64,000 nt of DNA from Schmidtea polychroa (taxonomy: Eukaryota): assembly GCA_044892525.1 (NCBI GenBank), contig CM097885.1, forward strand, positions 18,664,001 to 18,728,000, in the 5' to 3' direction. Below are positions 1 to 37,126 of this stretch, in pieces. The stretch's first letter is position 1; every line of letters starts with the position of its first letter. The position numbers were made by a program, and so were the translations under genes. The notes under the pieces are model-generated. The model saw nothing but the letters and a program-made list of their open reading frames with translations. It was not told the DNA's origin and did not search any database.

Positions 1-3000
1 TCTTCTCCAAAATCTTCATTTAATTCTTCCTCATCTTCTCCATCATTTTCTCCAACATTTTCTGAAACATTTTCTGCAACAATTTCTCCAACATTTTCTC
101 CAATATTTAATTCACTTAATCTTACATGCCCATATGCAAGACTAGTATTTTTCCCCACCCAAACCCTTTTGTCATCTTTGTTAGTTAGTGCTATTTTTGT
201 GTTTTTAATTGTAAAAATTTGATGATTTTTGCTTGTTATTTTAGTCTGAGGAACCGAAAAAATCTGGTTAGTGTTATAACAATCCAGGTATGACTGATGT
301 TTTATGTCACTACCTTTCAATGTTACACCTTTAGCCTTTTTTGTTTCCTCATCACTCAACAAGCTATAACATTTAGGTCTAAGAAAAACCCACTCCTTAT
401 ATTTAAGACCTTTATTCTCGTCTTTGAACTTTCCAATGACTGAATCAAGGTTCTTACTATATAAGGAATGACAACTATTGTAATTGGAAGTATCCAATAA
501 ATTATCTCGAACCATTGCAGGTAAAAGAACCTCAAGTTTGCAGTTAATGACTTCGAGGAAAAAAGAATCTGTATCACCTGCAACGATATTAATTTTACAA
601 TTAAACTCATTGCGAAATGATTCCAGATCCTTATATTGCAATTCATACATTCTAAGTTTAGATAGATCAAGTACAGATTGACCAATGTAACTCGGTCTAT
701 CTAAACATATAGAATCTGAATTCAATAGTGCTGCAATTAAATTATCTGCTATTTTAATAGATTTTTTAAAAGTTGGTTTTGACGAATATTTAACTAATTT
801 ACCGGCAGTTGTACAAAGACGAAGATTCATTCTTCTCTTTAAATTTTCAACTGTTTTGCCGTATAAACTATTATTTAGCAATTTATAATAATTTTTATCT
901 AAGCTATTTACGCTTTTTGATCTTAATTCAGTATTTGTATCTATATATTTTTTAAAAATTGGTGATTGCTTAAATCTTACACCCCTATTTACACGTGTTA
1001 CTTTAACACCAAGTTCCAAATATAATTTTAATAATCTCCAATGAATAACATAATTAGATTTTGGAAGATGAGTTAATAATAATTTTTCAACCTTAGACCC
1101 AGCAGGTTTCATTTTTTCAGCAGCTACAGGGAAATCATCCAACTTATCATGAAGCTCAGAAGGAATTACAAGATCAACTTCAAGTGTGTATCCATAAGAC
1201 AAAGATTCAAGATTTAAATTCCTACATTCATCCATTATTTTATCAAATCCATCAAGAACCCAACAAAATTCGCCACAAGGTAATGATTGACTTAAAGCCC
1301 AGCCATAAAGATTATTAATATCTATATATAGTAACTCGGTGTTCTCGTCGGTTTTTACGTAATGCTTATTCACAAAAGTAAGACCGCCTCTTATTCCACC
1401 CTCATAAAAGCTAAACATTTCGTTTTCAGTTATGAGTTCAATTGGTTCATTTAAAGACATTAATGCAGAAGACCAAGACATGCCTGGAATTCCGAAATAA
1501 TTCAATGGTTCCAATCTATTGTGAGCAATGGATTTCAACCGAAACTGATGAAAGAAATCAGCCAAAAGAAAACAATCAAGTTTTAGGTAGATCATCATAT
1601 AATCTAATAAAGTTACGCAATTAGTTTCTACCCAAATCTCCTGAGCTTTTTCATACTCAAGCTCAGTGACACCCTCCCAGATTGGTGGTAATTCATAAGT
1701 AGTTTGGAGAATATCTAAAGAAGTGGCGAAATTATAAGGGAAGATTCCTTTTTCACTTACTATGGTGCCAGAAAAAGCAGAATTAGTAAAAGGCAAAGAA
1801 TTCAAAGTTTTGACTGCTTTAGCCAAAGAATCATTGACAAATTGATACGAATCAATGAATCTTAGGCTAATTTTACCTAAATGAGCAATCAAAGATATAA
1901 ATTTTTCCGTAGTTATTGGGATGCACCCTAAATTCCAATTTTTAAATTTATTTAATCCATATTTAAGTATATGGTGCATATCGTATCCCTTCAAGTTGTG
2001 AAATACGATAGGCAAAATTTTATTTATTTTTCTATTTACGTTACATGTGCTACAAGCTGCACCCAAGTATTTCCCCGTAAAATGATCGTGATCTCTAACA
2101 GGATCCACGATAGATTTCAAACAAAGATAACAAACCGTTGAATTAATGAATTGTTGTTGCTCAATTTTCGTTAATTTAATCATTGGTTTCCTACCCATTT
2201 TATAATAAAAAGGAAGAACCTTATTTAATGCTATATCCTCTATAGCACTTAAAAAACTCTCGACGCAATCTAAACCTATGAACTGCTGATAAGATTTAGA
2301 TCCGTCAAAGTTATTTACTAGTAAAAGACCAGCAGATATTGGCATGTGTTGCTGAAAATGATCATTATCAGAAGGTAAAATAGCCTCAAAATCGGCATAA
2401 ACTACAAAAGGAGGAGTTACTGTTTTCGACCAGTCAGTAAACTGTAAGAATTTATTTTGAGGGAAAGTATAAAGAGTTGTTCCTAATTGATTACGTTTGC
2501 ATAATATTTCATGTTTTTCTAGTGCGTTTCTATTATTAAACCCATTCAAACACCGATGGCACCATAATGAACGTATGCGTGTAGGACAAGTAGTGTTGAT
2601 ACCACAATTCAATAACCTATTTAAATTGCTTATAGCAACGTAATGGAAATTGTTCCCTTTATTTAATAATAGTAAATTAATTACAGTTCCATTTAAAACT
2701 TTGGAACGATGTATAATGTCTAAATGTGGGTGTTTTAAAACGTAATTATCTATTAATTGTTTGTTATTGTCATAAGAAAAAACGTTAATTATTAAACCAG
2801 GATTTTTGGCCTCGAATTTTCTAATATCTTTTAATTTCATGGGTAAGTCCAATGGATTATATATTAACTCAGATAAATTATAACTGGATGTCCTATTTCT
2901 AGCATAACTACTAACCTCATCATATTTTAAAATAGCTAAAATGCTATATAAAAAACATGAATCATCGGTGTTTTTTATATTAATTAAACAATATTTATTT

Positions 3001-3710
3001 TTTAGATAAGTAGGTAGTTCAATGAAACTCCTACCACTTAATCTACTTAGCCTACTTATCTTTGTTATGGTGAAGTGAATTTCTGTTATTTTTTTTATGA
3101 TCCAGCTACTTCCTAACTCTGTGATATTACTTATTTTCTCGTTTAGTTCCCTAATGCCTTCGTCAAAAAATGAGGCAGTTAAAGGTTTTGCGTAATTCGA
3201 AATATTATTAACCTTTATTTCCCCATCTTTTTCAAATTCGATTGTTATTCCGAATTGAATTTTGACGGAGCCTAATTCGTTAATAATATCTCGTAATTTT
3301 ATAATTAATTGTTCAGGAAATATTATTTCCTTTATATTTAAGTCGCTAGTATTTAAACTTAATATTTGATGGGTACCCCTTAGATCTTTTTGTATTATGG
3401 GAACATTACCCCCTATTTGTATTATATTTAATCCATCCCAAGAATCAAGGGAAATATTATCTAATCCTACCTGGGATTCAACAACCAATCCATCATGGGA
3501 TTCGACAACCAATCCATCATTGGATTCCACAAAAGGCAATCCGACCTGGGATTCAAAAGAAGAAGTATCTAATTTAATTTTTTTATTTTTATTATTTTTT
3601 TCTATAGTTGAGGGTCTTTTAAAAACACTATCTTTTTTAAAATTAAACCTATCTAAATGATTTTTATGTTTATTATAAAAAACGCTATATGTTACGGGGT
3701 CACTAGTCAT
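1..3710 (-). CDS. Protein-primed family B DNA polymerase (Polinton pPolB), left copy, apparently intact; last ~14 codons lie outside the window
   Basis: Mirror image of 8165..11874. First in-frame ATG is at 3710 (AAG in the right copy) and the frame is open from ~3770. It has AAA where the right copy has TAA. Its absence from the ORF track is consistent with no in-frame stop before the window edge. Confidence 0.88.
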   Translation of the reverse strand, partial: MTSDPVTYSVFYNKHKNHLDRFNFKKDSVFKRPSTIEKNNKNKKIKLDTSSFESQVGLPFVESNDGLVVESHDGLVVESQVGLDNISLDSWDGLNIIQIGGNVPIIQKDLRGTHQILSLNTSDLNIKEIIFPEQLIIKLRDIINELGSVKIQFGITIEFEKDGEIKVNNISNYAKPLTASFFDEGIRELNEKISNITELGSSWIIKKITEIHFTITKISRLSRLSGRSFIELPTYLKNKYCLINIKNTDDSCFLYSILAILKYDEVSSYARNRTSSYNLSELIYNPLDLPMKLKDIRKFEAKNPGLIINVFSYDNNKQLIDNYVLKHPHLDIIHRSKVLNGTVINLLLLNKGNNFHYVAISNLNRLLNCGINTTCPTRIRSLWCHRCLNGFNNRNALEKHEILCKRNQLGTTLYTFPQNKFLQFTDWSKTVTPPFVVYADFEAILPSDNDHFQQHMPISAGLLLVNNFDGSKSYQQFIGLDCVESFLSAIEDIALNKVLPFYYKMGRKPMIKLTKIEQQQFINSTVCYLCLKSIVDPVRDHDHFTGKYLGAACSTCNVNRKINKILPIVFHNLKGYDMHHILKYGLNKFKNWNLGCIPITTEKFISLIAHLGKISLRFIDSYQFVNDSLAKAVKTLNSLPFTNSAFSGTIVSEKGIFPYNFATSLDILQTTYELPPIWEGVTELEYEKAQEIWVETNCVTLLDYMMIYLKLDCFLLADFFHQFRLKSIAHNRLEPLNYFGIPGMSWSSALMSLNEPIELITENEMFSFYEGGIRGGLTFVNKHYVKTDENTELLYIDINNLYGWALSQSLPCGEFCWVLDGFDKIMDECRNLNLESLSYGYTLEVDLVIPSELHDKLDDFPVAAEKMKPAGSKVEKLLLTHLPKSNYVIHWRLLKLYLELGVKVTRVNRGVRFKQSPIFKKYIDTNTELRSKSVNSLDKNYYKLLNNSLYGKTVENLKRRMNLRLCTTAGKLVKYSSKPTFKKSIKIADNLIAALLNSDSICLDRPSYIGQSVLDLSKLRMYELQYKDLESFRNEFNCKINIVAGDTDSFFLEVINCKLEVLLPAMVRDNLLDTSNYNSCHSLYSKNLDSVIGKFKDENKGLKYKEWVFLRPKCYSLLSDEETKKAKGVTLKGSDIKHQSYLDCYNTNQIFSVPQTKITSKNHQIFTIKNTKIALTNKDDKRVWVGKNTSLAYGHVRLSELNIGENVGEIVAENVSENVGENDGEDEEELNEDFGE

Positions 3711-3738
3711 ACATACGGGACATATAAAATAAGTTTTA

Positions 3739-4299
3739 TTATAATATTTTTTTTGTGTAATAATTCTCCATTATAGAATGGCAATTATTATCATGTTCTT
3801 TCGATGAACAATAATTTGGGTAAAGTATACCTATAAAATAAAAATTTAATAAAAAAATATAATTTAAATGAAATATTTTAGTAAATGTTTACGCAAAAAT
3901 TTGCAAATTATTATTATTTTACAAATTTTATTTACTAAAAAATAAAAATTTACTAAATTAAAAATATTAACATTTACTTAAATAAAAAATTATATTAAAT
4001 TTCCTTTAAATTATAAAAAGTAATCAATACTTACATTGTAAATTTTCATTTCGATTTATTGACACATTGACATAATTTTTTTCTTTATTCGTATTACCTA
4101 AATTATTAATTAATTAAATCAATAAATTTAAAATTATGTTTACTTTTTCTTTTCAAATTTCCTTTAATCTTAGATTTTAAATTGTCTTCATTAATATTAT
4201 CTAAATTAATTAATAAATTAATTAATAAATAAATTAAAATTTACCAAATTTCTGAATTTTTTCTCGGACATTCATAACGTTTTCTATTAAAGAATTCAT
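3739..4299 (-). CDS. Predicted 4-exon upstream ORF or 5' exons of pPolB (left-arm mirror of 7576..8136)
   Basis: Inverted copy of the exon/intron structure at 7576..8136 with the same GT-AG sites. Confidence 0.55.
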
Positions 4300-4889
4300 T
4301 TTTAAAGGTTAACTATTTGTTAAATGTGACTAATGATTGATTATTGTTTATAGATTATTATTGTTTATAGATTATTATTGTTCATAGGAACAAATTCTTA
4401 CCAATCAAAATCAAGGAAGGGTAGGAAAAAATTAATTTATTTTAAAACACATTTTGACGCTAAAGTTGACTTATTTAACATTTTCATAATAATTTAATAA
4501 AAATAATGTGATGAACCCACAAAGTAATATCATTTTTCATCAAATTGTAAAACAGTAATAACGTTTTCATAAAATTGTAACAAAGTAATAACATATTTCA
4601 GATAATTTTTCAACAGTTGTAAAATATTTAAGCAAATTGTAACAAGATTAGAAAATATTACAACAAAGTAGTAACATATTTCAGAAAATTTCAACAAAGT
4701 TGTAAAATATTTATCAAATTGTAACTAAAATAATAAAAATATTGCAACAAAGTAATAAAATAATAATGGTAATTAAGACAAATCAATACATTATTTCGAA
4801 GACGGACAACAAATTAAAAAGAATATTGTAACTAAAATAATAAAAATATTGCAACAAAGTAATAAAATAATACAACATTTTAAACTCTA

Positions 4890-5330
4890 GATCAATCCAT
4901 TTTATAGAAAATTAAATTTTATCTATATAATATATGAATAAATATCCAAGGAAATTACGTTAACGTATAATAAATACAAATTTATCGTAAAAACATGTGT
5001 GTATTACACACAAAACAAGATACATAATTTCTAATCAATCCATTTTATAGAAAATTAAATTTTATCTATATATTATATGAATAAAATCCTAAGAAAATTA
5101 CGTTAACTGTATGAAAAATACAAATTTATCATAAAAACATGTGTGTATTACACACAACATACGAGACATAATTTTTAATCAAGCTATTTTATAGAAAATT
5201 AAATTTTATCTATATAATATATGAATAAAAATCCAAGAAAATTACGTTAACCGCGCGAAAAACTACAAATTTATTGTAAAAACATGTGTGCATTACACAC
5301 AAAGCATCAAACTGAAATTGTAATTGCGCC
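4890..5330. repeat. ~143-bp tandem repeat x3 containing palindromes (mirrored at ~6545..6985)
   Basis: Units start near 4893, 5036 and 5179: TTTTATAGAAAATTAAATTTT...TTACGTTAAC...AAAAACATGTGTG(T/C)ATTACACAC. Confidence 0.85.
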
Positions 5331-5417
5331 ATGTTGTAGAGAATTAAATTCTGCCTATACATGGTTACACTTAAATCTCGATCAGACATGTGAAAAGAGA
5401 CATAAAAGATAAAAAAC

Positions 5418-6457
5418 AGTAGAGTAGTATGATGTGTCCCCGCCAGACCAGGTCCCCGCCAGACCACATATACCCCCTCCCCCCCCCCCCGGTCTGAAAA
5501 ATTTTATTTTTTTTTTTAGAACGATGCCTAATATTTTTAGAACTATTACGTAATCAATGCCTAATATTTTTAGAACGATGCCTAATATTTTTAGAACTAT
5601 TACGTAATTTTTTTTAAATTAATTGGTCCAGCGGTGACCTACTTTTTTTCTTCCCAAAAATAATGTTCCCGCCAACAAATTTTATTGAACGATACCTCAT
5701 CTTAAAGCTCAGTCCAAGACCTTTCGAATGAGCTATAGGTATCTTATATATCTTTAATAGTTTTAATGTTATTAACAATTGATGACCACCATCTTTTCAA
5801 CGTTAAATTATTATTATTATTCAAAATATTATTAATTGGTCCAGCGGTGACCTACTTTTTTTCATCCCAAAAATTATTGTTCCCGCCAACATATTATATT
5901 GATCGATAGCTTATTTTAAAGCTCTGTGCAAGAACTTTCTAATGAGATATAGATTTTTATCATACGATGACTCATCACATTTTTAGAACAAAGACAATGA
6001 CTCATCATATTTTTAGAACGATGCCTAATATTTTTAGAACGATGCCAAATACTTTTAGAACGATGCCTAATATTTTTAGAACGATGCCTAATATTTTTAG
6101 AACTATTACGTAATCGATGTCTAATATTTTTAGAACGATGCCAAATATTTTTAGAATGGTGCCTAATATTTTTAGAACGATTACGTCATACTTTTAGAAC
6201 GATGCCTAATATTTTTAGAACTATTACGTAATTTTTTTAAATTAATTGGTCCAGCGGTGACCTACTTTTTTTCTTCCCAAAAGTAATGTTTCCATCATCC
6301 GAATTTATTAATCAAACACTTATTTTAAAGCCCAGTGCAAAATCTATATACTGATATATAAATATTATTATTAACATTATTTTACACACGGGGGGGAGGG
6401 GGTATATGTGGCCGAGCGGGCTCCTGGCCGGGCGGGCCCACATCATACTACTCTACT
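5418..6457. mobile_element. 1.04-kb non-autonomous mini-element with Polinton-like termini at the palindrome axis
   Basis: Begins AGTAGAGTAGTATGATG...TACCCCCTCCCCCCC and ends GGGGGGGAGGGGGTA...CATCATACTACTCTACT. This is the same AGTAG...TACCCCCTCCCC layout as the element 2 terminus. Confidence 0.7.
5515..6300. repeat. 21-bp minisatellite (AGAACGATGCCTAATATTTTT) plus three copies of a ~60-bp unit (AATTGGTCCAGCGGTGACCTAC...)
   Basis: 21-mers at 5518-5610 and 6010-6230. Longer unit near 5621, 5834 and 6244. Confidence 0.85.
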
Positions 6458-7394
6458 GTTTTTTATCTTTTATGTCTCTTTTCACATGTCTGATCGAGAT
6501 TTAAGTGTAACCATGTATAGGCAGAATTTAATTCTCTACAACATGGCGCAATTACAATTTCAGTTTGATGCTTTGTGTGTAATGCACACATGTTTTTACA
6601 ATAAATTTGTAGTTTTTCGCGCGGTTAACGTAATTTTCTTGGATTTTTATTCATATATTATATAGATAAAATTTAATTTTCTATAAAATAGCTTGATTAA
6701 AAATTATGTCTCGTATGTTGTGTGTAATACACACATGTTTTTATGATAAATTTGTATTTTTCATACAGTTAACGTAATTTTCTTAGGATTTTATTCATAT
6801 AATATATAGATAAAATTTAATTTTCTATAAAATGGATTGATTAGAAATTATGTATCTTGTTTTGTGTGTAATACACACATGTTTTTACGATAAATTTGTA
6901 TTTATTATACGTTAACGTAATTTCCTTGGATATTTATTCATATATTATATAGATAAAATTTAATTTTCTATAAAATGGATTGATCTAGAGTTTAAAATGT
7001 TGTATTATTTTATTACTTTGTTGCAATATTTTTATTATTTTAGTTACAATATTCTTTTTAATTTGTTGTCCGTCTTCGAAATAATGTATTGATTTGTCTT
7101 AATTACCATTATTATTTTATTACTTTGTTGCAATATTTTTATTATTTTAGTTACAATTTGATAAATATTTTACAACTTTGTTGAAATTTTCTGAAATATG
7201 TTACTACTTTGTTGTAATATTTTCTAATCTTGTTACAATTTGCTTAAATATTTTACAACTGTTGAAAAATTATCTGAAATATGTTATTACTTTGTTACAA
7301 TTTTATGAAAACGTTATTACTGTTTTACAATTTGATGAAAAATGATATTACTTTGTGGGTTCATCACATTATTTTTATTAAATTATTATGAAAA

Positions 7395-7480
7395 TGTTAA
7401 ATAAGTCAACTTTAGCGTCAAAATGTGTTTTAAAATAAATTAATTTTTTCCTACCCTTCCTTGATTTTGATTGGTTAGAA
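7395..7480 (+). promoter_or_regulatory. Putative promoter block of the pPolB locus (GCGTCA CRE-like half-site, ATTGG/CCAAT box)
   Basis: Lies ~100-180 bp upstream of ATG 7576. The block is conserved in the element 2 spacer (32860-32970). Confidence 0.4.
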
Positions 7481-7575
7481 TTTGTTCCTATGAACAATAA
7501 TAATCTATAAACAATAATAATCTATAAACAATAATCAATCATTAGTCACATTTAACAAATAGTTAACCTTTAAAA

Positions 7576-8136
7576 ATGAATTCTTTAATAGAAAACGTTA
7601 TGAATGTCCGAGAAAAAATTCAGAAATTTGGTAAATTTTAATTTATTTATTAATTAATTTATTAATTAATTTAGATAATATTAATGAAGACAATTTAAAA
7701 TCTAAGATTAAAGGAAATTTGAAAAGAAAAAGTAAACATAATTTTAAATTTATTGATTTAATTAATTAATAATTTAGGTAATACGAATAAAGAAAAAAAT
7801 TATGTCAATGTGTCAATAAATCGAAATGAAAATTTACAATGTAAGTATTGATTACTTTTTATAATTTAAAGGAAATTTAATATAATTTTTTATTTAAGTA
7901 AATGTTAATATTTTTAATTTAGTAAATTTTTATTTTTTAGTAAATAAAATTTGTAAAATAATAATAATTTGCAAATTTTTGCGTAAACATTTACTAAAAT
8001 ATTTCATTTAAATTATATTTTTTTATTAAATTTTTATTTTATAGGTATACTTTACCCAAATTATTGTTCATCGAAAGAACATGATAATAATTGCCATTCT
8101 ATAATGGAGAATTATTACACAAAAAAAATATTATAA
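7576..8136 (+). CDS. Predicted spliced ORF (exons 7576-7630, 7675-7731, 7778-7840, 8045-8136; 88 aa) or 5' exons of pPolB
   Basis: Three phase-1 GT-AG introns (44, 46 and 204 bp; donors GTAAAT, GTAAAC, GTAAGT; acceptors TTTAG, TTTAG, ATAG) keep one open frame: MNSLIENVMNVREKIQKFDNINEDNLKSKIKGNLKRKSNTNKEKNYVNVSINRNENLQCILYPNYCSSKEHDNNCHSIMENYYTKKIL*. Confidence 0.6.
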
Positions 8137-8335
8137 TAAAACTTATTTTATATGTCCCGTATGTAAGACTAGTGACCCCGTAACATATAGCGTTTTTTAT
8201 AATAAACATAAAAATCATTTAGATAGGTTTAATTTTAAAAAAGATAGTGTTTTTAAAAGACCCTCAACTATAGAAAAAAATAATAAAAATTAAAAAATTA
8301 AATTAGATACTTCTTCTTTTGAATCCCAGGTCGGA

Positions 8336-11300
8336 TTGCCTTTTGTGGAATCCAATGATGGATTGGTTGTCGAATCCCATGATGGATTGGTTGTTGAATC
8401 CCAGGTAGGATTAGATAATATTTCCCTTGATTCTTGGGATGGATTAAATATAATACAAATAGGGGGTAATGTTCCCATAATACAAAAAGATCTAAGGGGT
8501 ACCCATCAAATATTAAGTTTAAATACTAGCGACTTAAATATAAAGGAAATAATATTTCCTGAACAATTAATTATAAAATTACGAGATATTATTAACGAAT
8601 TAGGCTCCGTCAAAATTCAATTCGGAATAACAATCGAATTTGAAAAAGATGGGGAAATAAAGGTTAATAATATTTCGAATTACGCAAAACCTTTAACTGC
8701 CTCATTTTTTGACGAAGGCATTAGGGAACTAAACGAGAAAATAAGTAATATCACAGAGTTAGGAAGTAGCTGGATCATAAAAAAAATAACAGAAATTCAC
8801 TTCACCATAACAAAGATAAGTAGGCTAAGTAGATTAAGTGGTAGGAGTTTCATTGAACTACCTACTTATCTAAAAAATAAATATTGTTTAATTAATATAA
8901 AAAACACCGATGATTCATGTTTTTTATATAGCATTTTAGCTATTTTAAAATATGATGAGGTTAGTAGTTATGCTAGAAATAGGACATCCAGTTATAATTT
9001 ATCTGAGTTAATATATAATCCATTGGACTTACCCATGAAATTAAAAGATATTAGAAAATTCGAGGCCAAAAATCCTGGTTTAATAATTAACGTTTTTTCT
9101 TATGACAATAACAAACAATTAATAGATAATTACGTTTTAAAACACCCACATTTAGACATTATACATCGTTCCAAAGTTTTAAATGGAACTGTAATTAATT
9201 TACTATTATTAAATAAAGGGAACAATTTCCATTACGTTGCTATAAGCAATTTAAATAGGTTATTGAATTGTGGTATCAACACTACTTGTCCTACACGCAT
9301 ACGTTCATTATGGTGCCATCGGTGTTTGAATGGGTTTAATAATAGAAACGCACTAGAAAAACATGAAATATTATGCAAACGTAATCAATTAGGAACAACT
9401 CTTTATACTTTCCCTCAAAATAAATTCTTACAGTTTACTGACTGGTCGAAAACAGTAACTCCTCCTTTTGTAGTTTATGCCGATTTTGAGGCTATTTTAC
9501 CTTCTGATAATGATCATTTTCAGCGACACATGCCAATATCTGCTGGTCTTTTACTAGTAAATAACTTTGACGGATCTAAATCTTATCAGCAGTTCATAGG
9601 TTTAGATTGCGTCGAGAGTTTTTTAAGTGCTATAGAGGATATAGCATTAAATAAGGTTCTTCCTTTTTATTATAAAATGGGTAGGAAACCAATGATTAAA
9701 TTAACGAAAATTGAGCAACAACAATTCATTAATTCAACGGTTTGTTATCTTTGTTTGAAATCTATCGTGGATCCTGTTAGAGATCACGATCATTTTACGG
9801 GGAAATACTTTGGTGCAGCTTGTAGCACATGTAACGTAAATAGAAAAATAAATAAAATTTTGCCTATCGTATTTCACAACTTGAAGGGATACGATATGCA
9901 CCATATACTTAAATATGGATTAAATAAATTTAAAAATTGGAATTTAGGGTGCATCCCAATAACTACGGAAAAATTTATATCTTTGATTGCTCATTTAGGT
10001 AAAATTAGCCTAAGATTCATTGATTCGTATCAATTTGTCAATGATTCTTTGGCTAAAGCAGTCAAAACTTTGAATTCTTTGCCTTTTACTAATTCTGCTT
10101 TTTCTGGCACCATAGTAAGTGAAAAAGGAATCTTCCCTTATAATTTCGCCACTTCTTTAGATATTCTCCAAACTACTTATGAATTACCACCAATCTGGGA
10201 GGGTGTCACTGAGCTTGAGTATGAAAAAGCTCAGGAGATTTGGGTAGAAACTAATTGCGTAACTTTATTAGATTATATGATGATCTACCTAAAACTTGAT
10301 TGTTTTCTTTTGGCTGATTTCTTTCATCAGTTTCGGTTGAAATCCATTGCTCACAATAGATTGGAACCATTGAATTATTTCGAAATTCCAGGCATGTCTT
10401 GGTCTTCTGCATTAATGTCTTTAAATGAACCAATTGAACTCATAACTGAAAACGAAATGTTTAGCTTTTATGAGGGTGGAATAAGAGGCGGTCTTACTTT
10501 TGTGAATAAGCATTACGTAAAAACCGACGAGAACACCGAGTTACTATATATAGATATTAATAATCTTTATGGCTGGGCTTTAAGTCAATCATTACCTTGT
10601 GGCGAATTTTGTTGGGTTCTTGATGGATTTGATAAAATAATGGATGAATGTAGGAATTTAAATCTTGAATCTTTGTCTTATGGATACACACTTGAAGTTG
10701 ATCTTGTAATTCCTTCTGAGCTTCATGATAAGTTGGATGATTTCCCTGTAGCTGCTGAAAAAATGAAACCTGCTGGGTCTAAGGTTGAAAAATTATTATT
10801 AACTCATCTTCCAAAATCTAATTATGTTATTCATTGGAGATTATTAAAATTATATTTGGAACTTGGTGTTAAAGTAACACGTGTAAATAGGGGTGTAAGA
10901 TTTAAGCAATCACCAATTTTTAAAAAATATATAGATACAAATACTGAATTAAGATCAAAAAGCGTAAATAGCTTAGATAAAAATTATTATAAATTGCTAA
11001 ATAATAGTTTATACGGCAAAACAGTTGAAAATTTAAAGAGAAGAATGAATCTTCGTCTTTGTACAACTGCCGGTAAATTAGTTAAATATTCGTCAAAACC
11101 AACTTTTAAAAAATCTATTAAAATAGCAGATAATTTAATTGCAGCACTATTGAATTCAGATTCTATATGTTTAGATAGACCGAGTTACATTGGTCAATCT
11201 GTACTTGATCTATCTAAACTTAGAATGTATGAATTGCAATATAAGGATCTGGAATCATTTCGCAGTGAGTTTAATTGTAAAATTAATATCGTTGCAGGTG

Positions 11301-11917
11301 ATACAGATTCTTTTTTCCTCGAAGTCATTAACTGCAAACTTGAGGTTCTTTTACCTGCAATGGTTCGAGATAATTTATTGGATACTTCCAATTACAATAG
11401 TTGTCATTCCTTATATAGTAAGAACCTTGATTCAGTCATTGGAAAGTTCAAAGACGAGAATAAAGGTCTTAAATATAAGGAGTGGGTTTTTCTTAGACCT
11501 AAATGTTATAGCTTGTTGAGTGATGAGGAAACAAAAAAGGCTAAAGGTGTAACATTGAAAGGTAGTGACATAAAACATCAGTCATACCTGGATTGTTATA
11601 ACACTAACCAGATTTTTTCGGTTCCTCAGACTAAAATAACAAGCAAAAATCATCAAATTTTTACAATTAAAAACACAAAAATAGCACTAACTAACAAAGA
11701 TGACAAAAGGGTTTGGGTGGGGAAAAATACTAGTCTTGCATATGGGCATGTAAGATTAAGTGAATTAAATATTGGAGAAAATGTTGGAGAAATTGTTGCA
11801 GAAAATGTTTCAGAAAATGTTGGAGAAAATGATGGAGAAGATGAGGAAGAATTAAATGAAGATTTTGGAGAAGATGACATCGATATCGATGACGTTATTT
11901 TGTCCGATGAGGACTAA
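8336..11917 (+). CDS. Protein-primed family B DNA polymerase (Polinton pPolB), right copy; 5' part cut off by in-frame TAA at 8291-8293
   Basis: Exonuclease motifs YADFE, HNLKGYD, FIDS, KGIFPY and YLKLD. Polymerase motifs RGG, DINNLYG, KLLNNSLYGK, GDTDS, KCY and KAKG. Endonuclease VII-like Zn insert CYLC..DHDHFTG..GAACSTCN. N-terminal INIKNTDDSCFLYS...FHY segment typical of Polinton pPolBs. AATAAA at 11926. Confidence 0.95.
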   Translation: MPFVESNDGLVVESHDGLVVESQVGLDNISLDSWDGLNIIQIGGNVPIIQKDLRGTHQILSLNTSDLNIKEIIFPEQLIIKLRDIINELGSVKIQFGITIEFEKDGEIKVNNISNYAKPLTASFFDEGIRELNEKISNITELGSSWIIKKITEIHFTITKISRLSRLSGRSFIELPTYLKNKYCLINIKNTDDSCFLYSILAILKYDEVSSYARNRTSSYNLSELIYNPLDLPMKLKDIRKFEAKNPGLIINVFSYDNNKQLIDNYVLKHPHLDIIHRSKVLNGTVINLLLLNKGNNFHYVAISNLNRLLNCGINTTCPTRIRSLWCHRCLNGFNNRNALEKHEILCKRNQLGTTLYTFPQNKFLQFTDWSKTVTPPFVVYADFEAILPSDNDHFQRHMPISAGLLLVNNFDGSKSYQQFIGLDCVESFLSAIEDIALNKVLPFYYKMGRKPMIKLTKIEQQQFINSTVCYLCLKSIVDPVRDHDHFTGKYFGAACSTCNVNRKINKILPIVFHNLKGYDMHHILKYGLNKFKNWNLGCIPITTEKFISLIAHLGKISLRFIDSYQFVNDSLAKAVKTLNSLPFTNSAFSGTIVSEKGIFPYNFATSLDILQTTYELPPIWEGVTELEYEKAQEIWVETNCVTLLDYMMIYLKLDCFLLADFFHQFRLKSIAHNRLEPLNYFEIPGMSWSSALMSLNEPIELITENEMFSFYEGGIRGGLTFVNKHYVKTDENTELLYIDINNLYGWALSQSLPCGEFCWVLDGFDKIMDECRNLNLESLSYGYTLEVDLVIPSELHDKLDDFPVAAEKMKPAGSKVEKLLLTHLPKSNYVIHWRLLKLYLELGVKVTRVNRGVRFKQSPIFKKYIDTNTELRSKSVNSLDKNYYKLLNNSLYGKTVENLKRRMNLRLCTTAGKLVKYSSKPTFKKSIKIADNLIAALLNSDSICLDRPSYIGQSVLDLSKLRMYELQYKDLESFRSEFNCKINIVAGDTDSFFLEVINCKLEVLLPAMVRDNLLDTSNYNSCHSLYSKNLDSVIGKFKDENKGLKYKEWVFLRPKCYSLLSDEETKKAKGVTLKGSDIKHQSYLDCYNTNQIFSVPQTKITSKNHQIFTIKNTKIALTNKDDKRVWVGKNTSLAYGHVRLSELNIGENVGEIVAENVSENVGENDGEDEEELNEDFGEDDIDIDDVILSDED

Positions 11918-12104
11918 TTTTATTGAATAAATTTTATATCTTTACATTTGTTATTTGGTAAATTTTTATGTTTGTTATGTGTCTAGTTCATTTTTATGTG
12001 TTTAGTTAATGTTTATATGTTTTGTTATGTGTCTAGTTATTTTTATGTGTTTAGTTAATTTTTTATGTGTTGTATAGTATTTGGTTGATATATTATTAAT
12101 ATTA

Positions 12105-12163
<59 letters not shown>

Positions 12164-12399
12164 TCATAAAAATTTTCATTAAAAATTATCTTAAAAATTA
12201 TTCTATTAAAATTTCCATTAAAAATTACCATTGAAAATTATTCATAAAAATTTCTATTAAAAATTACTTAAAAAATAATTCATTAAAATTTCCATTAAAA
12301 AATTTCAATTCTCAAACACCTTCTATTTTTGTTAATAAATTTAAAAATCTTACTTTAATTTACTTATTACATTACTTTAATTTACTTATTTAAAAATTA

Positions 12400-12625
12400 T
12401 TACTTTAATTTTAAAATTTTTGACCTTAATTAACTTTAATTTAATTTTTAGAACCATAATTTACTTTAATTTTAAAATTTTTGACCATTATTTACTGTAA
12501 TTTAATTTTTAGAACCATTATTTACTGTAATTTAAAATATTTGGACCATTATTTACTTTAATTTAATTTTTTAGAACCATTATTTACTTTAATTTAAAAA
12601 TTTGGATCATAATTTACTTTATTTT
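12400..12625. repeat. ~30-bp subterminal tandem repeat (GACCATTATTTACTGTAATTTAA...), same family as the element 2 arrays
   Basis: Direct sequence match to 39170-40630. Confidence 0.85.
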
Positions 12626-13064
12626 AAAAATTTACTATGCGTTTTTTAATGTAAACCACCTTTTCTATTGAAATTCTCATGACCAAGAAGATCCCCTCAC
12701 TATAGTGTGAAAAATCCATGCTTTTTTATTGAAGACTACCTTTTTCTATTGAAATTCTCAGGACCAAGGAGACCCACCCAAATAATATTTATCCTTGGCT
12801 TGTTTATTGAAAAAAAAAAAAAAAAAAAAAAAAAATTTGTATTTAAAATCCCAGAAAACATTGGGCATTACGGCAACAATTATGTAATCAAAAAATGTCT
12901 ACGGAAAAAGTTATGCAATCAAAAGTTTGCAACATTTTTTACCCCCCCCCTATTGCTGCCGTAAGCCACTAACTACCTCCTATGATAATATTTTTTTAAT
13001 TTCATTTTGTGAATTTTTTAATTAAATAAACATATTTATAGTAATAATCAAGCAACATTTACAC

Positions 13065-15559: not shown

Positions 15560-16801
15560 ATGTTGTTCTATGAGTTTTCTAATTCTTGTTCGGAAAATCT
15601 CACGAACGCAACCGTCGACGAAATGGTGTTGCGCTTTAAAACTCAAGAATGGTACTTGATGTTGGCAATTCTTCCTGTCAGTGTTTTGGCATTTTTAGCC
15701 AATTCAATTTCTTTGATAATCTTTTCAAAACAATATTTTGACAATAGTGCAGTTAAATTTAATTTGGTATCAATTTCCGTTTCGGAAATCGTTTTGCAAT
15801 TAGTTGTTGTTTCGGAGGTCATCATAGTGTTAGGAGGTGTGGAGGATGTATGGAAATGGAAAGAAATGCTGACTACCTCTGTAATCCATATGTCTCTAAA
15901 TGCTATGTTTTCAATTCGTAATTGGAATGTCGTCCTTATATCTGTTGCAAGGTGTGAAGTGGTAATTAGTCCACTTTCCTTGCGAGGCAGACTTATATTT
16001 AATAAAATTGTCCTAAGAATTCTAACAACATTAATTATTGTAATATCTGTTGTCCTTGCCTGTTTAAATATTCTAAAAGATAAAGGAATTATTTGTGTAA
16101 ATTTAGATTGGTTCGTCACAATAGTTGGATTTCTGAATCAATTTGAAGCTTATAGTTATTTTGATATTTACGGGATCTTTATGTTCCAATCATGTTTGCC
16201 TGTAATTTTCATTTGTATTTCAACTTTCATAATTGGTTTCAAACTGAGAGAAACTCCAATGAAAAATAAGCTTCTCTCTAAGGGTCCATTTCTATACAAA
16301 GACAACGGAAAGGTTTCCAAACAAAAGATTCCTAAATCCTCGAAATTCTACAACAGAGGAATTTTCAAACCAAAATTCCAACCTCTTCAACCCAATGTAT
16401 CAGCAATTACCGATGAGAACCGTAAAGGAAAGCTAATATCTTCCATTTCTTTAATCAAAAACCGTATTCGGACAAGTTATTTGGTTTTGTTCTTGTCATT
16501 GATGTTTTGTTTGCTGCAAATCCCCACATTCATCATTACTTGTGTCCTCAGATTTCATCCAAATCTTGATTTTGAAATCCACCCAGATGTATTTTCCAAC
16601 AGTTTATTGGTAATAGATTCCTTTTTGAATTTTTTTGTTTATGCCGCCAGCAGCAAGAAATTTCGGTATTCAGTTCTGAGACTCTTTGAAAGATTTTGGT
16701 CGAATTCAAAATCTGATACAATTAAACGACAATATCTCAATTCAACTGTGCTGGAGAAGTGTAACAGAGCGGATGAAAATTCAAATATTTCCCCTGAATG
16801 A
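15560..16801 (+). CDS. Intronless class A (rhodopsin-like) GPCR, peptide-receptor-like orphan
   Basis: Seven hydrophobic segments, N-terminal N-glycosylation sites, TM1 AN, TM3 ARC (DRY variant), TM6 FCLLQIP, TM7 NFFVY and helix 8 FR. First ATG is at 15560 (the ORF track starts at TTG 15527). Confidence 0.88.
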   Translation: MLFYEFSNSCSENLTNATVDEMVLRFKTQEWYLMLAILPVSVLAFLANSISLIIFSKQYFDNSAVKFNLVSISVSEIVLQLVVVSEVIIVLGGVEDVWKWKEMLTTSVIHMSLNAMFSIRNWNVVLISVARCEVVISPLSLRGRLIFNKIVLRILTTLIIVISVVLACLNILKDKGIICVNLDWFVTIVGFLNQFEAYSYFDIYGIFMFQSCLPVIFICISTFIIGFKLRETPMKNKLLSKGPFLYKDNGKVSKQKIPKSSKFYNRGIFKPKFQPLQPNVSAITDENRKGKLISSISLIKNRIRTSYLVLFLSLMFCLLQIPTFIITCVLRFHPNLDFEIHPDVFSNSLLVIDSFLNFFVYAASSKKFRYSVLRLFERFWSNSKSDTIKRQYLNSTVLEKCNRADENSNISPE

Positions 16802-27751: not shown

Positions 27752-27859
27752 AGTAGGTAGATAGTGGCCCACTGCAACAATTACCCCCCTCCCCCCCCTA
27801 GAAAAAAAATTTTTGCAACTCGCATTTTTTGTTGCAACTTTTTATTACGCAATTGTTCC

Positions 27860-28210
27860 ACACTATAGTGAGGGGGTCTCGATGGTCCTGGGATTTTCAA
27901 TACAAAAAAATTTTTTCAATACAAAAATCCGATTATCACTAAAAAAGCATGGAATTTTCAGACTATAGTGAGGGGGGGGGGGGGGGGGGGTCTCGATGGT
28001 CCTGGGATTTTCAATACAAATAAAATTTTTTCAATACAAAAATCCGACTACCACTAAAAAAGCCAAGAATTTATCAGACTATAGTGAGGGGGTCTCGATG
28101 GTCCTGGGATTTTCAATACAAATAAAATTTTTTCAATACAAAAATCCGACTACCACTAAAAAAGCCAAGGATTTATCAGACTATAGTGAGGGGGTCTCCT
28201 TGGTCCTGAG
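27860..28210. repeat. ~110-bp subterminal repeats (ACTATAGTGAGGGGGTCTCGATGGTCCTGGGATTTTCAATAC); inverted counterpart at 40690-40990
   Basis: Units visible by eye. Related sequence at 12660-12780. Confidence 0.85.
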
Positions 28211-28249
28211 AAAAAGGTGGTCTACACTAAAAAACGTGGTAAATTTTTT

Positions 28250-28800
28250 CAATTAAAGTAAATAATGGTTCTAAAAAATTAAATTACAGTAAATAATGGT
28301 CCAAAATTTTCAATTACAGTAAATAATGGTCTAAAATTTTCAATTAAGTAAATAATGGTCCTAAAAATTGAATTACTGTAAATTATGGTCCTAAAAAATT
28401 AAATTACAGTAAATTATGGTCCTAAAAAATTAAATTACAGTAAATTATGGTCCAGATTTTTCAATTACAGTAAATTATGGTCCAAATTTTTCAAATACAG
28501 TAAATTATGGTCCAAATTTTTCAATTACAGTAAATAATGGTTCTAAAAAATTAAATTACAGTTAATTATAGTCCTAAAAATTGAATTACAGTAAATTATG
28601 GGTCTAAAAATTGAATTAAAGTAAATTATGGTCCAAATTTTTCAATTACAGTAAATTATGGTTCAAAAAATTGAATTACAGTAAATTATGGTCCAAATTT
28701 TTGAATTAAAGTAAATTTTGGTTCTAATAAATTAAATTAAAGTAAATTATGGTTCTAAAAAAATTAAATTAAAGTTAATTAAGGTCCAAATTTTAAAATT
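28250..28800. repeat. ~30-bp tandem array, left arm of element 2
   Basis: AATTACAGTAAATTATGGTCCAAATTTTTC-type units. Confidence 0.9.
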
Positions 28801-29054
28801 AAGTAATCAATGGTAAAAAATTTTAAATAAGTAAATTAAAGTAAATTAAAGTAAGATTTTTAAATTTATTAACGAAAAGTTGAAATAATAGGTGTTTGAG
28901 AATTGAAATTTTTTAATGAAAATTTTTATGAAATAATTTTTTAAGAAATTTTTAATGAAATATTTTTCAATGGTAATTTTAGATGGAAATTTTTAAGATA
29001 ATTTTTAATGAAAATTTTTATGAAATATTTTTCAAAGACAAATTTTAATAATAA

Positions 29055-29750
29055 TTCAACAACAAACCAACAACCAGTAACTTACGAACATGTATTAACA
29101 ACCAGAGACCTACAACCAGTTACCTGATACCAAGTACCAACAACCAAAAACATGCAACCAACTAGGTACCAAGTACTAACAACTAGCTACCACCTACCCA
29201 TTAACTAGCTACTAAGTACTAACAACCAACAACAACCAGGTACTAAGCATTATTAACCACCTACTAAGTACCGACAATCAGTAACTTACGAACATGTATT
29301 ACCAACCAGATACCTACAACTAGTTACTAACAACCAGTTACCTGATACCAAGTACTAACAACCCACAACAATTAGCTAACAACTAACTACCACCTACCAA
29401 GTACCTACAACCAATAACAACCAACTACTAAGTACTAACAACCAAAAACAATCAACTAGGTACTAGATACCAAGTACTTACAACAAACATCAACCAAGTA
29501 CCTACAACAACCTACCAAGTACTTACAACCAACATCAACCAGATACCTACAACTAGACACCAACAACCAGTTACCACCTACCCAATCACTAGCTACAACC
29601 AGCTAACAACTAACTACCAAGTACATACAACCAACAACAACCAAGTACTAAGCATTATCAACCAAGTACTAACAACCAAGTACAAGATACCTAGTACTAA
29701 CAACCCGCTAACAACTATATACCAAGCACTTACAACCAGATGACCACATG
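29055..29750. repeat. Strand-biased ACAACC/TACTAAC mosaic repeat; inverted, expanded counterpart at 37580-38870
   Basis: Shuffled short motifs (ACAACC, AGTACTAAC, TACCTAC). Confidence 0.85.
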
Positions 29751-32469
29751 AAATTATTGGTTAAATATGAAAATAATGGTTATAATTAGTTGTTAAGTAA
29801 ATTATGGTGTAAAATTAAGAAATAAAGAATAATTAGGAAAATTAGGATATATTAAGGAAAATTAAGGTTCAAAATTTAAAATTAAGTAACCAATGGTTCA
29901 AATTTTAAATTAAAGCTAAATGAGTAAATTAAAGTAATAATTTTTAAATAAGTAATGTAATAAGTAAATTAAACTAAGATTTTTAAATTTATTATCAAAA
30001 GATTGAATAACCACCAACTTTTTTGAGAAATGTAATTTTTAATGAAAATTTAAATGGAAATTTTTTTTTAAGTTAATTTTAAACGTCATATTTTTTAAAT
30101 AGAAATTTTTAAGTTAATTTTTTAAGTTATTTTCAATGAAATATTTTTCAAAGTCAAATGAAAATTTTAATGGAATAATAATAATAATAATAATAAAAAT
30201 AATCATAATAATAATAATAATAATTCAACAGTTCCCAACAATCGGATACTAAATATTTTTAACTAGGTGCTAACAAATAAGTACAAAAATACTTACAACA
30301 TGATACCACGTACTAACTAACTCTCAAACAACCACATACTTACAACTAACTACTTACACTCAACTAAAATTAATATTTTTTATACAGCTTCTATAATAAT
30401 TTTAATTACAATCAGTAGAAAAACCTTTTCAAATGTAACAAAAATGTTGATTTTCATCAAAAAACCACAACTCAATCACTTTAAAACACCAAGTGAAATT
30501 CAAAATAATTTAAATTAGAATGAAAGACTAATGAATTCTAATTTACAAAACATTCTTCTTTTAAATGATAACTACTGACTTATTATTGCAAAGTAAAAAT
30601 CACATTCAATAAATACTTATTGTTGATCAGTTTTATTATATATACTCTGAGTTTATCCGACAGGATGTTTTGACCCTCTAAGGGTACTGGTCGTAAGGGT
30701 ATTAGTCGTAGGGGTACTGGTTGTAAGGATATTGCTAACACTCAACCCCCACCTACCCATTAACTAGTTACTAAGTACTAACAACCAGCTAGCAACTAAA
30801 TACTAAACACTAACAACCACCATCAACCAGATACTAAACATTATCAACCTACAACTATATAACAACAATCAGTAAACAACACTGTACCAACTACCAAATA
30901 CAAGATACCAACAACTTAGTACCAACAATCAACTAACAACACATAAAAATAATAGCAATTAAATACAAAATATTCTTCATCGCATACACTATTTTCTTAT
31001 CAAAATCTAAAAAGTCAACCAACTACTAACAACCAACAACTATGTACTAACAAATAGATCTTTAAAAGCAAATACTCATCACTTGAAAAATTAGATGGAA
31101 AATTATTTGAACTCAAGGCATCAATAACTAGGTAAAAATTGATTAAATTATTGTAAAAAATTTAAATTATTCAAAATAAATATCATAAAAATTTAAATTA
31201 TTCAAAATAAATATCATAAAAATTTAATTAATGGACAAGAAAAAATTCTAATCATTAATCATCAAGTAAATAAAAAAAAATACTGATCATTCAAGTTGAA
31301 TCAACTAAGATAATAAATTAATAAAATTTGAAACAAAATCTAGTAGATAATTGATTTAGATTGAATAAATTAATTGAAATAAATTAATTTTAATTATTTA
31401 TTTTTAAAGTAATACATGTACTCAAATTGATTGACTGATTTCTCAATATATTCAAAAAATCAGTATAAATTCATTACAATTATCAAAGTCATCAATCTAC
31501 AATAAAAATAATTATCATTAAATTCCAAAAGAGACTAGATAGCTAATGATAACATCTAACAAACCAGTAAATTCATTTAAATGACAACAATTGGTATATT
31601 CAAGTGAATTCTCCAATAAAATCATCTAAAAAGAATCATTCCCCCCCTAAATATATCAATATTTAAAGAATTGTATTTTAATGATAGGTACTTGTTAAAG
31701 ATCATATATTCACCTCAAACTAATAAGATTCCTTAAAATCCCTTAAATGACTATATTTCAACCCTTAATTCATATTATTAAAAATATCATCTAAAAAGCA
31801 TCAAATTTCCTTGAAATAACTCTATCCTTAAAGATTGATATTTTAATGATAAGTACCCGTAAAAGATCATATACTCCCCTCAGACTAATAAGATTGCTTA
31901 AAATCCCCTTTAAATGACTATAATTCTAACTTTAATTCCTATTATCATACATATTTCGCTATTGATAAAACCAGTTATAATTAAATTATTTGTTAATCAC
32001 TGTACTCGATATTTTAAATAAATATTACTGTACAATATAACTGACTAGGTCCTATTGAAAGATTAAATTTATCCATTCAATAAAATATATTTCTTCAAAT
32101 GATCATTTTTACCAATATTCAACCGATTTAATTACTAATTAAAATCAATCGATAGATTTCTTTCAATAAAGATCAATTTTATTTAGTCAATGTTTTAAGT
32201 CCATATTTCTCAACTTTTGTCGTTGTCCGTCTAAATAAAGATAAAAATAATTTAAAGTTGATATCAATCCCAATTATCTGTACGGATTTCATTGTCAAAA
32301 CCAAGTAAATCGATCATTATCCCTACTTAATAAAACATTGTTCTAAATTAATTTACTGTGCATTAATCACAACCTAATAAAACGATATAATTTCACATTA
32401 TTATTGATACATAACTGACTAATGTATTGCAATTTCCTTAAAAACATTGATATTTTACCAACATCACCC

Positions 32470-32710
32470 TTAAAAAATCATATATTCCCATCTTAACCCA
32501 TCTCTCATTAAATTTAACCGACTATATCTCCCTTACAATGATATATTCCCATCTTAACCGATCTTTCATTACATTTAACCGACTATATCCCCTTAAAAGA
32601 TCATATTTTCCCCATCTTATCCGATCTCTCATTAAATCTAACCAACAATATCCCATCTTAACCGATCTCTCACCAAATATTTCTACCCCTTTAAACATCT
32701 AACCGAATAT
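32470..32710. repeat. CCCATCTTAACCGA..CTCATTAAATCTAACCGACTATAT repeats; inverted counterpart at 34400-34765
   Basis: Several imperfect tandem units near the inner end of each arm. Confidence 0.8.
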
Positions 32711-35700
32711 ATCCTTCAATTCTACCCACTTGACTCCTCCTTTAATTCAATTCAGTCTTAAAATCTTTAAAGAACTTCAAAAATATGACTTAATTGTTAA
32801 AGACACCAGGCATTCTTCCATTGAAATAATTTAGAAGCTAAATAATAAGAGCCCACTAACTAATCAAAATCATGGAAGGGCAGGGGAAAAAATATATTAC
32901 GTCGCGGTATTTTAAAATTAAAATTTATTTTAAAAACACATTTTGACGCTAAAGTCGACTTATGTAACAAAGATATAATAAACTCATTATTTCCTACAAA
33001 TATTTACCATCAAATACTTAACTAGAGATGATATATATTGTTTGATCATTATTCTTCATCGATTCAGCCAATCATTTTCAATCACTGTCAGCAAACTAAA
33101 TTTCTGTATATCCTACAATAATTATCAAGTAAATTTAAAGTCCCTGATAAAGTTAACTGGTTTCTTAGCTTATGTTTTTTAAAGTTCATTAATGTGTAAA
33201 TATTCTTAGAAAATTATTGAAAAATTATTTAGTCAAATATATTACAAAGTTATCATCAAAAATTTATTCTATCACTTAATTATTAACCTAATTGTCAATG
33301 AAATTAATTTTTATTTTAAAACTATTCAATAAAATACAACTAATTATCAAGAAATTAATTAAATTTAATTAAATTTATCACCATTAAAACTTTAAATTTT
33401 TAATCAGTCAACATGAAATTCTTAGAAAATTATTCAATATCCTCATCAAAATTTATCCTATCACTTGATTATTGTACAAACTTTAATTATTAACCTCATT
33501 AAAAATAAATTTTTATTTAAAATTAAAAAACCAATCAATAAAAATACATTCAATTATCAAGAAATTAATTAAATTTACCTTAGAATTAGCATTAAACTAG
33601 TTTATTACATAACAAGCCGTGACTAGTTTATTACATAACAAGCTGTGAATGGTATTTTTATGTTATGTAATAAACTAGTTTAAATTACATATCCTCCTCA
33701 CTCTATTTCCCACTATGTATTCACTTATATCCCCCCGATTTTCCACTATTTAATCACTTATATTCCCCGATTTTCTACTTATATTCCACCGATTTTGATT
33801 AATTATTCCCCACAAATATTTCTTTTTTTTTATTAAATTTATAAATTTTATGAAATAATTTTAAATAAATTCAATTAATATATTTCCATTCTTATCAACC
33901 TTCATTTTATCTATGCCACTTCTCAGTATTTACCTCTCATGATCCATTAATGAATTATTCTACCAATTATTTTCACCCATTTGAATTTATCATCGAGTAA
34001 TGAATAATTTCCTCACTTTAATGGTGATTCTTACCACCTTCATTGTTAATTTTATCAAAGTTTAAAGAATATTTCTCTTTTTATCCTACAATTGCTTACC
34101 ACTTTAGATTTTTTATCGAAATTTATGATAATTTGACTAATTCAATGAAAAATTTGAATTGGTTTTATTATATATACTTTGAGTTTATCCGACAAAATAT
34201 TCTGTCCCCCTATGGGTATTGCTCACAAGGGTACTACTCACATTCAACATGTCGTAAGGATATTAGTCGTAAAGGTATTTAATGCTTTTATTTGAATGAT
34301 TATTTAGGCAAATTTGTTTGCATTCATTGATAATTTTTAGGATTTTAAGAGGATTGACTGAATTAAAGGAGGATTCAAGTGGGTAGAATTGAAGGATATA
34401 TTTGGTTAGATGTTTAAAGAGGTAGAAATATTTAATGAGAGATCGATTAAGATGGGAAAATATGATCTTTTAAGGGAGATATAGTCGGTTAGATTTAATG
34501 AAGGATGGGTTAAGATGGAAATAGATCATTGTAAGGGAGATATAGTCGATTGACTTTAATAAGAAATCGGTTAAGATGGGAATATATGATCTTTTGAGGG
34601 GATATAGTCGGTTAGATTTAATGAGAGATCAGATAAGGTGGGAATATATCATTGTAAGGGAGATATAGTCGATTGAATTTAATGAAGGATGGGTTAAGAT
34701 GGGAATATAGTCGGTTAAATTTAATGAGAGATGGGTTAAGATGGGAATATATGATTTTTTTAATGGTGATGTTGGTAAAATATCATTGTTTTAAGGGAAA
34801 TTGTAATTAGTCAGTTATGAATCAATAATAATTATATCGTTTTATTAGGTTGTGATTAATTCATTGTATATTAATTTAGATTTATGTTTTAGAACAATGT
34901 TTTATTAAGTAGGGATAATGATCGATTTACTTGGTTTTGACAATGAAAACTTTACAGATAATTGGGATTGATATCAACTTTAATTTATTTTTATCTTTAT
35001 TTAGACGGAGAATGACAAAATTTGAGAAATATGGACTTAAAACATCGACTAAATAAAATTGATCTTTATTTGAAGAAATCTATCGATTGATTTTAATTAG
35101 TAATTAAATCGATTGAATATCGGTAAAAATGATCATTTGAAGAAATATATTTTATTGAATGGATAAATTTAATCTTTCAATGGGACCTAGTCAGTTATAT
35201 TTATTTTAAATTTCGAGTACACTGATTAACAAAAATTTAATTATAACCAGTTTGATCATTAGATTTTATAAATTATTTAGGGTTAATGACCAAATTATTT
35301 TACATGTTTTATAGGGAAATATTCGTGATAATATGAATTAAAGTTAGAAATATAATCATTTAAAGGGGATTTTAAGCAATCTTATTAGTCTGAGGTAAAT
35401 ATATAACCTTTTAAGGATATTTATCGATAAAATACTAATCTTTAAAGATAGAGTTATTTCAGGGAAATTTGATGCTTTTTAGATGATATTTGTAATAATA
35501 TGAATTAAGGGTTGAAATATAGTCATTTAAGGGATTTTAAGGAATCTTATTAGTTTGAGGTGAATAAATGATCTTTAACAATTATTTATCATTAAAATAT
35601 TAATCTTTAAATATTGATATATTTAGGGGGAAATGATTCTTTTTAGATGATTTTATTAGAGAATTCGCTTGGATATACCAATTATTGCCATTTAAATGAA

Positions 35701-37044: not shown

Positions 37045-37126
<82 letters not shown>

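Follow-up and report, generated by a model that had tools for sequence, protein, structure and literature searches.

A Polinton-type end at the axis of a 14-kb polymerase palindrome in Schmidtea polychroa as a probable self-priming site

The unit at the axis of a 14-kb palindrome in Schmidtea polychroa is probably the end of a one-armed, polymerase-only Polinton derivative that has acted as a self-priming site and has given rise to such palindromes repeatedly. The window, which is the whole stretch of DNA analysed, comprises 64,000 nucleotides (GCA_044892525.1, CM097885.1 positions 18,664,001-18,728,000). Palindromes, one-armed forms and dimers can be read directly from the genome together with their target duplications, as can the make-up of the unit, the limits of arm symmetry and the mixing of its left side (T1) with free ends. 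The mechanism of copy-back synthesis is inferred from these data, all of which are integrated copies.

The palindrome is 14,153 bp long, from 1,171 bases upstream of the window to position 12981, with 98.6% identity including indels. The mirror comparison of 1-5485 with 6390-11874 is ungapped and shows 16 mismatches in 5,485 positions. Each arm carries one polymerase gene, and both genes are directed outwards. The features of the element are listed by position in the window.

1..5422, minus strand: left arm; a further 1,171 bases, up to a B-type end, lie upstream of the window
3..3710, minus strand: polymerase gene, left copy, near-identical to the right copy; frame open over at least 1,236 aa
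5418..5422, plus strand: AGTAG pentamer, part of the arm junction and not a free end; mirror CTACT at 6453-6457
5423..6452, plus strand: spacer module of 1,030 bp on the axis of the palindrome, made up of a Polinton-type end and an inverted terminal tip
5423..6381, plus strand: T1 side, collinear with free ends of an abundant gene-less T-ended family at 85-96% identity
5423..5436, plus strand: terminal 14 bp, perfect mirror at 6439-6452; symmetry stops there in the window copy
5625..5643, minus strand: internal end-like mirror motif AGTAGGTCACCGCTGGACC; more copies at 5838-5856 and 6248-6266
6382..6452, minus strand: T' side, an inverted terminal tip of ~70 bp fixed to the arm; none seen as a free end
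6453..12981, plus strand: right arm, with non-coding repeats, polymerase gene and B-type outer end
8165..11917, plus strand: right copy of the polymerase gene, with a break close to the 5' end; 960-aa frame from 9035
12982..12987, plus strand: 6-bp target-site duplication ATGATA; partner copy at L031:8823-8828

The defect of the right polymerase gene consists of a start codon missing at the matching place and an in-frame stop near 8291. Its 960-aa frame matches PF03175 (protein-primed polymerase B, E 1.5e-30), a family that was not returned for the full-length left frame. There is no further frame of at least 100 aa in 1-12981 and hence no integrase within the element; genes for a capsid, a packaging ATPase or a protease are also absent from it. 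ATPase and capsid-like frames were found in other families. The inner ends carry the motif AGTAGT and the outer B ends AGTAGG, a near match to the Polinton motif, which the available portion of PMC8097293 gives as (AG)n or (AGT)2. A protein-primed polymerase B, an AGT-type end motif, a 6-bp duplication and a length of ~14 kb are shared with Polintons (Mavericks) as these are described in the accessible parts of PMC8097293, PMC10748475 and PMC6431247. In contrast to Polintons, the element has no integrase, capsid, ATPase or protease and carries two polymerase copies. Its arms of ~6.5-6.6 kb around a 1-kb spacer lie outside the 100-1,500 bp that PMC10748475, in its available part, gives for the terminal inverted repeats of autonomous Polintons. 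The palindrome family also differs in having two internal ends at the axis and in the integration of forms with unlike ends. The element descends from Polintons, yet it does not qualify as an autonomous one.

The preliminary description placed a 1,040-bp unit at 5418-6457, with an AGTAG start and a CTACT end, and recognized that its flanks (AAAAAC and GTTTTT) are inverted copies and not a duplication. The observation on the flanks is correct, but the true ends are 5423 and 6452, because free ends of the same type start with AGTAGTA directly after the 6-bp duplication. The outer pentamer is retained in the older relatives L091, L093 and L095 and in L060. Two copies of TGGTCTGGCGGGGAC are present in the unit as described, and the inner tips have indeed diverged while the outer arms are near-identical (9 mismatches within 5437-5463 versus 7 in 1-5436). 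The unit consists of ~960 bp of a common Polinton-type end and an inverted tip of ~70 bp. It departs from the T-family sequence at 6381, where contigs of sequencing run X1 show loose ends too. Full-length matches to the unit are present at 18 of the 30 best DNA-match loci. T-type end motifs number 1875 and 1896 on the two strands of the genome (control, 9 and 4), and the sampled members of the T-type family are long elements that lack a frame of 200 aa and show 6-bp duplications. Of 36 free ends, 19 contain the internal mirror motif in their first kb. In the predicted minimum-energy and centroid folds of the strand, the inner tips T1 and T' pair with each other.

Genome-wide counts are 657 for the arm junction (control, 0) and 322 for the unit-specific internal joint, which corresponds to ~320-330 palindromes. 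The earlier view of the palindrome as a single event is not borne out, since the window copy belongs to a large family. Facing pairs, 44 in number, account for 88 of the first 100 junctions. The 12 unpaired ones, all of which were inspected, comprise six palindromes with a damaged or variant second junction, three hits in two mixed-end elements, one older free-ended module, one interrupted copy and one rearranged copy. Both ends are in view in 12 B-ended polymerase palindromes. In 11 of these, the first end pair is flanked by an exact 6-bp duplication; in the remaining one, L041/42, the flank at that place is inverted and the duplication lies at a third end. At this locus (L041/L042/L174, G000:C1 42.58-42.60 Mb), ~2.4 kb of the left flank of a 14.6-kb palindrome are repeated in inverted orientation after it, with 99.9% identity over the 1,951 bp compared, and the third B end carries the duplication CAAGTA.

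T1 functions as an end in one-armed forms and in dimers, with target duplications at L055/56, L057, L063/64 and L095. It is the exact insertion boundary, with a 6-bp duplication, in the one-armed elements T1-T'-polymerase-B (L057 and L095) and in a B...T1 hybrid (L063/64), and L055/56 is a T1-ended inverted dimer with a 6-bp duplication. The axis of this dimer rests on ~4 bases of microhomology, so palindromes here can form without the spacer module. One-armed forms are rare, with two clear cases and three junction hits among the first 100 junctions.

According to the proposed mechanism, the precursor would be a one-armed element that consists of a T1 end, 1 kb of DNA, the inverted tip T', an arm with the polymerase, and a B end. 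Synthesis from the B end would displace a strand that carries the complement of T1 at its 3' end. This 3' end would pair with T', its putative landing site, 1 kb back on the same strand, and extension along the arm would produce a hairpin with a B origin at the open end. Copying round the hairpin would result in the order B-arm-spacer-arm-B, and the palindrome would be integrated by an integrase supplied in trans from another element. The flanks would be inverted because the new arm is a copy of the old arm, and the inner tips would differ because the sequence of the primer is retained in all but its final bases. The spacer could also recombine with the abundant free T ends through the 900 bp that they share. 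Such recombination would renew the one-armed precursors, and palindromes would therefore form repeatedly.

The suggestion that the spaced inverted tips seeded copy-back receives indirect support, since symmetry stops inside the tips in 58 copies and one-armed precursors exist. Symmetry enters the spacer by 7-68 bases in these 58 copies, with a median of 14. In the 330 bp beside the junction, both arms are identical in 45 of 58 palindromes, private changes included, while these arm-matched copies differ from the window at up to 16 positions. The inner arms are unlike in 13 of the 58, which indicates that arms also recombine or decay. The two tips differ in their variety. T1 tips fall into ~37 types in 58 copies, five being identical to free tips, and T' tips into 14 types (56 tips), none of which equals a free tip. 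For 13 copies with identical inner arms, the mean difference is 0.1% on the T' side and 5.5% on the T1 side, the latter figure being inflated by repeat-number changes; one small group of three differed on both sides.

The mixing of T1 sides with free ends is also apparent in a tree of the 330 bp behind the tip. Here 51 spacer T1 sides interleave with 34 free ends, ten of them picked by likeness to the window, and 17 label changes are seen; seven spacers (five short, two unlabelled) and two free ends were left out, and repeat-number changes inflate some distances. At least eight label changes are forced by well-supported branches, and a single origin appears in 0 of 200 bootstrap trees, in an unrooted tree whose bootstrap is rough and had not settled and in which 45 of 75 inner branches are open. 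Tips of the same copy agree more than tips in shuffled pairing. In 55 copies (three of 58 excluded), the agreement is 0.953 versus 0.835 at positions 8-14 and 0.621 versus 0.584 at positions 31-42, the excess being largest near the terminus, and shared descent likewise raises agreement. In L097, a trimmed T1 tip is joined to the internal mirror motif. This joint, a single case with one match in the genome, suggests the footprint expected from a free 3' end priming elsewhere. A slice of the polymerase shows no within-copy differences in 7 of 11 copies, with the nearest other copy 0-4 differences away, and another copy is closer than the sister arm in the window copy and in L065; the family is too young for good discrimination between sister arm and other copies in this slice. 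Contigs of four sequencing runs, all short, contained no hairpin and no free end.

The preliminary description had a different history in mind, in which a mobile mini-Polinton inserted once upstream of the polymerase, a single copy-back followed and the palindrome spread as a clone. Some properties of the unit agree with it. MITE-like miniature derivatives are internally deleted elements with terminal inverted tips, and the unit resembles them in having such tips and the look of an internal deletion, with a breakpoint at 6381. The layout from polymerase to end is shared with an integrase-bearing sister family, which makes a full-length ancestor plausible, and the junction is old and single. 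However, unlike MITE-like elements, the unit was never found free, and one end only is an insertion boundary. No free unit with duplications on both sides exists among the 30 best DNA-match loci. The right tips (T') of the commonest type were followed by A, G or T in 0 of 227 cases and always by C, in a pattern that covers the commonest tip types only and would let a free end followed by C escape detection. Of the first 48 of the 322 unit-specific joints, 47 adjoin an arm junction, the 48th adjoins a deleted junction, and none is free. Inner arm ends number ~668, of which 657 have the junction, the search patterns differing by one letter, and the one exception inspected is a rearrangement. Neither an empty site nor a direct progenitor was found among the junction searches and this exception.

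The insertion of a mini-Polinton by itself is not supported, given the lack of a free copy at these 30 loci and of a free right tip among the 227. The search for free copies with 6-bp duplications, which the preliminary description had called for, had a divided outcome: the unit was never independent at the loci and joints checked, but its left end, and this end only, is an insertion boundary elsewhere. The unit is not a free mini-element. Moreover, a random target would hardly contain the 5-base CTACT repeat of the junction, and the ~37 T1 tip types in 58 copies and the mixing with free ends are unexplained by one event. A clonal spread after one insertion and one copy-back is consequently unlikely, and a single ancient insertion may be the source of the inner tip.

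Host repair is a further alternative, and again an improbable one. Intact palindromes would propagate, and break repair and gene conversion with the T family would swap T1 and even out the arms. Inverted copies of flanking DNA lie beside the ends at L041/42, L051/52 and L053, with 99.7-100% identity over 0.5-2 kb, and 13 of the 58 copies are chimeric, both of which speak for repair. However, in most copies T1 could be swapped only by way of a second crossover inside the final 7-14 bases. The exact outer duplications in 11 of 12 palindromes also show that the palindromes entered as finished units.

It is similarly doubtful that the palindrome came first, with its inward ends as internal origins or integrase substrates and the one-armed forms as its products. 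Both inner ends carry the full AGTAGT motif, and the one-armed forms, which palindromes far outnumber, begin exactly at T1, all of which speaks for palindromes as the source. But the inner ends share their last 14 bases and their flank, yet only T1 is free (T' 0/227), and the diversity of T1 is unexplained by palindromes alone. Internal origins, which the preliminary description had offered as an alternative, are disfavoured because only the left end was ever found free. Sequencing chimeras can produce near-perfect long palindromes, but an assembly artefact from fold-back reads is refuted for the family, and almost inconceivable, given unique flanks with 6-bp duplications, a non-palindromic spacer, hundreds of copies, and 7 substitutions as well as indels between the arms.

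Copy-back from a self-priming end, the preferred reading, has parallels in known systems. A panhandle replication model for Polintons was reportedly put forward by Kapitonov and Jurka in 2006, Yasuda and Yao are said to have described foldback priming at short spaced inverted repeats in Tetrahymena rDNA in 1991, and palindromic defective replicons of terminal-protein genomes were reportedly treated by Esteban et al. in 1997. By analogy, the element would work like a fold-back defective replicon of a terminal-protein genome. In the available part of PMC10622511, foldback priming in yeast occurs at short spaced imperfect inverted repeats, and the primer end is corrected. The likeness to foldback in yeast and Tetrahymena, as far as the same portion of PMC10622511 extends, lies in a free 3' end that pairs with a nearby inverted repeat and is extended, and in a large palindrome with a non-palindromic centre and a partly corrected primer end. 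A short spaced inverted repeat at the axis and arms copied from one template, which mark foldback palindromes, are found here. The difference is that the free end here would be the terminus of an element, the loop measures ~1 kb, copying yields a mobile product, and the element itself likely provides the polymerase.

Replication of phi29 DNA, which is protein-primed, yields short palindromic DNAs when its single-strand binding protein is omitted, according to the accessible text of PMC2175359. The defective replicons of phi29, as presented there, resemble the proposed products in strand displacement, in protein priming and in a palindrome with a working origin at each end. Those products are short and made in vitro, whereas the palindromes described here are 14 kb long, polymerase-coding, integrated and present in hundreds of copies. 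The rolling hairpin of parvoviruses and AAV, in the available part of PMC11575299, is also alike in that self-priming of the 3' end leads to head-to-head and tail-to-tail dimers; in contrast, the element has no Rep nickase and no short terminal hairpin, and its ends are of the protein-primed type. No published description of palindromic polymerase-only Polintons was found in a search that ran outside subscription papers and Repbase reports. The copying of Polinton DNA is inferred from gene content and end motifs and is not observed, according to the available portion of PMC8097293. The integrated palindromes and their one-armed and dimer isomers may preserve a natural record of strands that were displaced and of 3' ends that were free. 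In this host, where the family is young, a search for free intermediates has concrete targets in them. Two ends from different families, as these forms demonstrate, can be brought together and enter the genome as a single unit. Standard Polinton searches need several core genes, and such elements would therefore be missed.

The older relatives L091, L093 and L095 have arm identities of 88-92% and other tip types and keep the CTACT-CTACTG junction, which is kept with another tip type in L060 as well, beside a polymerase that is 57% identical. The presence of the junction in such diverged relatives indicates that it is old. In L060 (5960-6140), a 170-bp module with end tips of the integrase-bearing family sits inside the CTACT-CTACTG junction next to this polymerase. 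The integrase-bearing family has an ATPase, a capsid-like frame and a polymerase that is ~60% identical, and 150 near-identical integrase copies were scored. For the capsid-like frame, ESM Atlas features reach 0.97, with recognition below the bar of the tool. The polymerase follows a non-coding stretch of 2-3 kb and is directed towards the right end of the element, an arrangement also seen in the arm. With T and B, the ends of this family share only the first 5-6 bases, and the family is therefore no more than a candidate helper. No helper with T or B ends was found among seven integrase-bearing loci and L165/L083, where the ends seen were of another type and the end patterns recognised no end at four of the seven loci.

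A more far-reaching interpretation is tentative and less likely than not. The family might be a polymerase-only Polinton satellite with a two-state cycle, in which an old, dedicated self-priming module converts a one-armed form, whose ends are unlike, into a palindromic dimer and back, its outer origin being refreshed by captured ends. Such a module is compatible with the retention of the junction, which persists in relatives with as little as 88% arm identity and next to the 57%-identical polymerase. If this were the case, outer origins would be captured from other families that share only the terminal AGTAG, and replication would be a hybrid of protein-primed and hairpin-primed modes. The satellite would also supply polymerase to gene-less palindromes and borrow integrase from full Polintons.

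Further elements and inverted duplications occur in the window and elsewhere in the genome. A second, more diverged palindrome of 13.3 kb lies in the window at 27752-41094, with B-like ends, the duplication CACCTA and no frame of 100 aa. Elements of 13-17 kb with B or T ends, exact 6-bp duplications and no frame of 200 aa are present at L037/38, L045/46, L047/48 and L049/50. Near the start of a contig (L171, L051-L053, L172 and L173; G000:C1 0.18-0.22 Mb), T-ended elements lie at the axes of nested inverted duplications that are 99.7-100% identical. At L087/L088 (G000:C3 134.89 Mb), a large inverted duplication with 81-95% identity is formed by an element that has integrase, ATPase and capsid-like genes. 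A Polinton with a third end type extends from L092:4624 to L164:1810, downstream of the older free-ended module at L091:6770-7121; it has a capsid, an integrase, an ATPase and a distant polymerase and is flanked by the duplication GATCAG. Just outside that module, a 747-aa frame (L091:3094-5334) matches a viral fusion glycoprotein (PF24664, E 2.7e-45). The window also contains a 413-aa single-exon frame like a membrane protein, without a Pfam match (15560-16801, plus strand), and a fragment of a DDE_3 transposase (60313-60984, plus strand).
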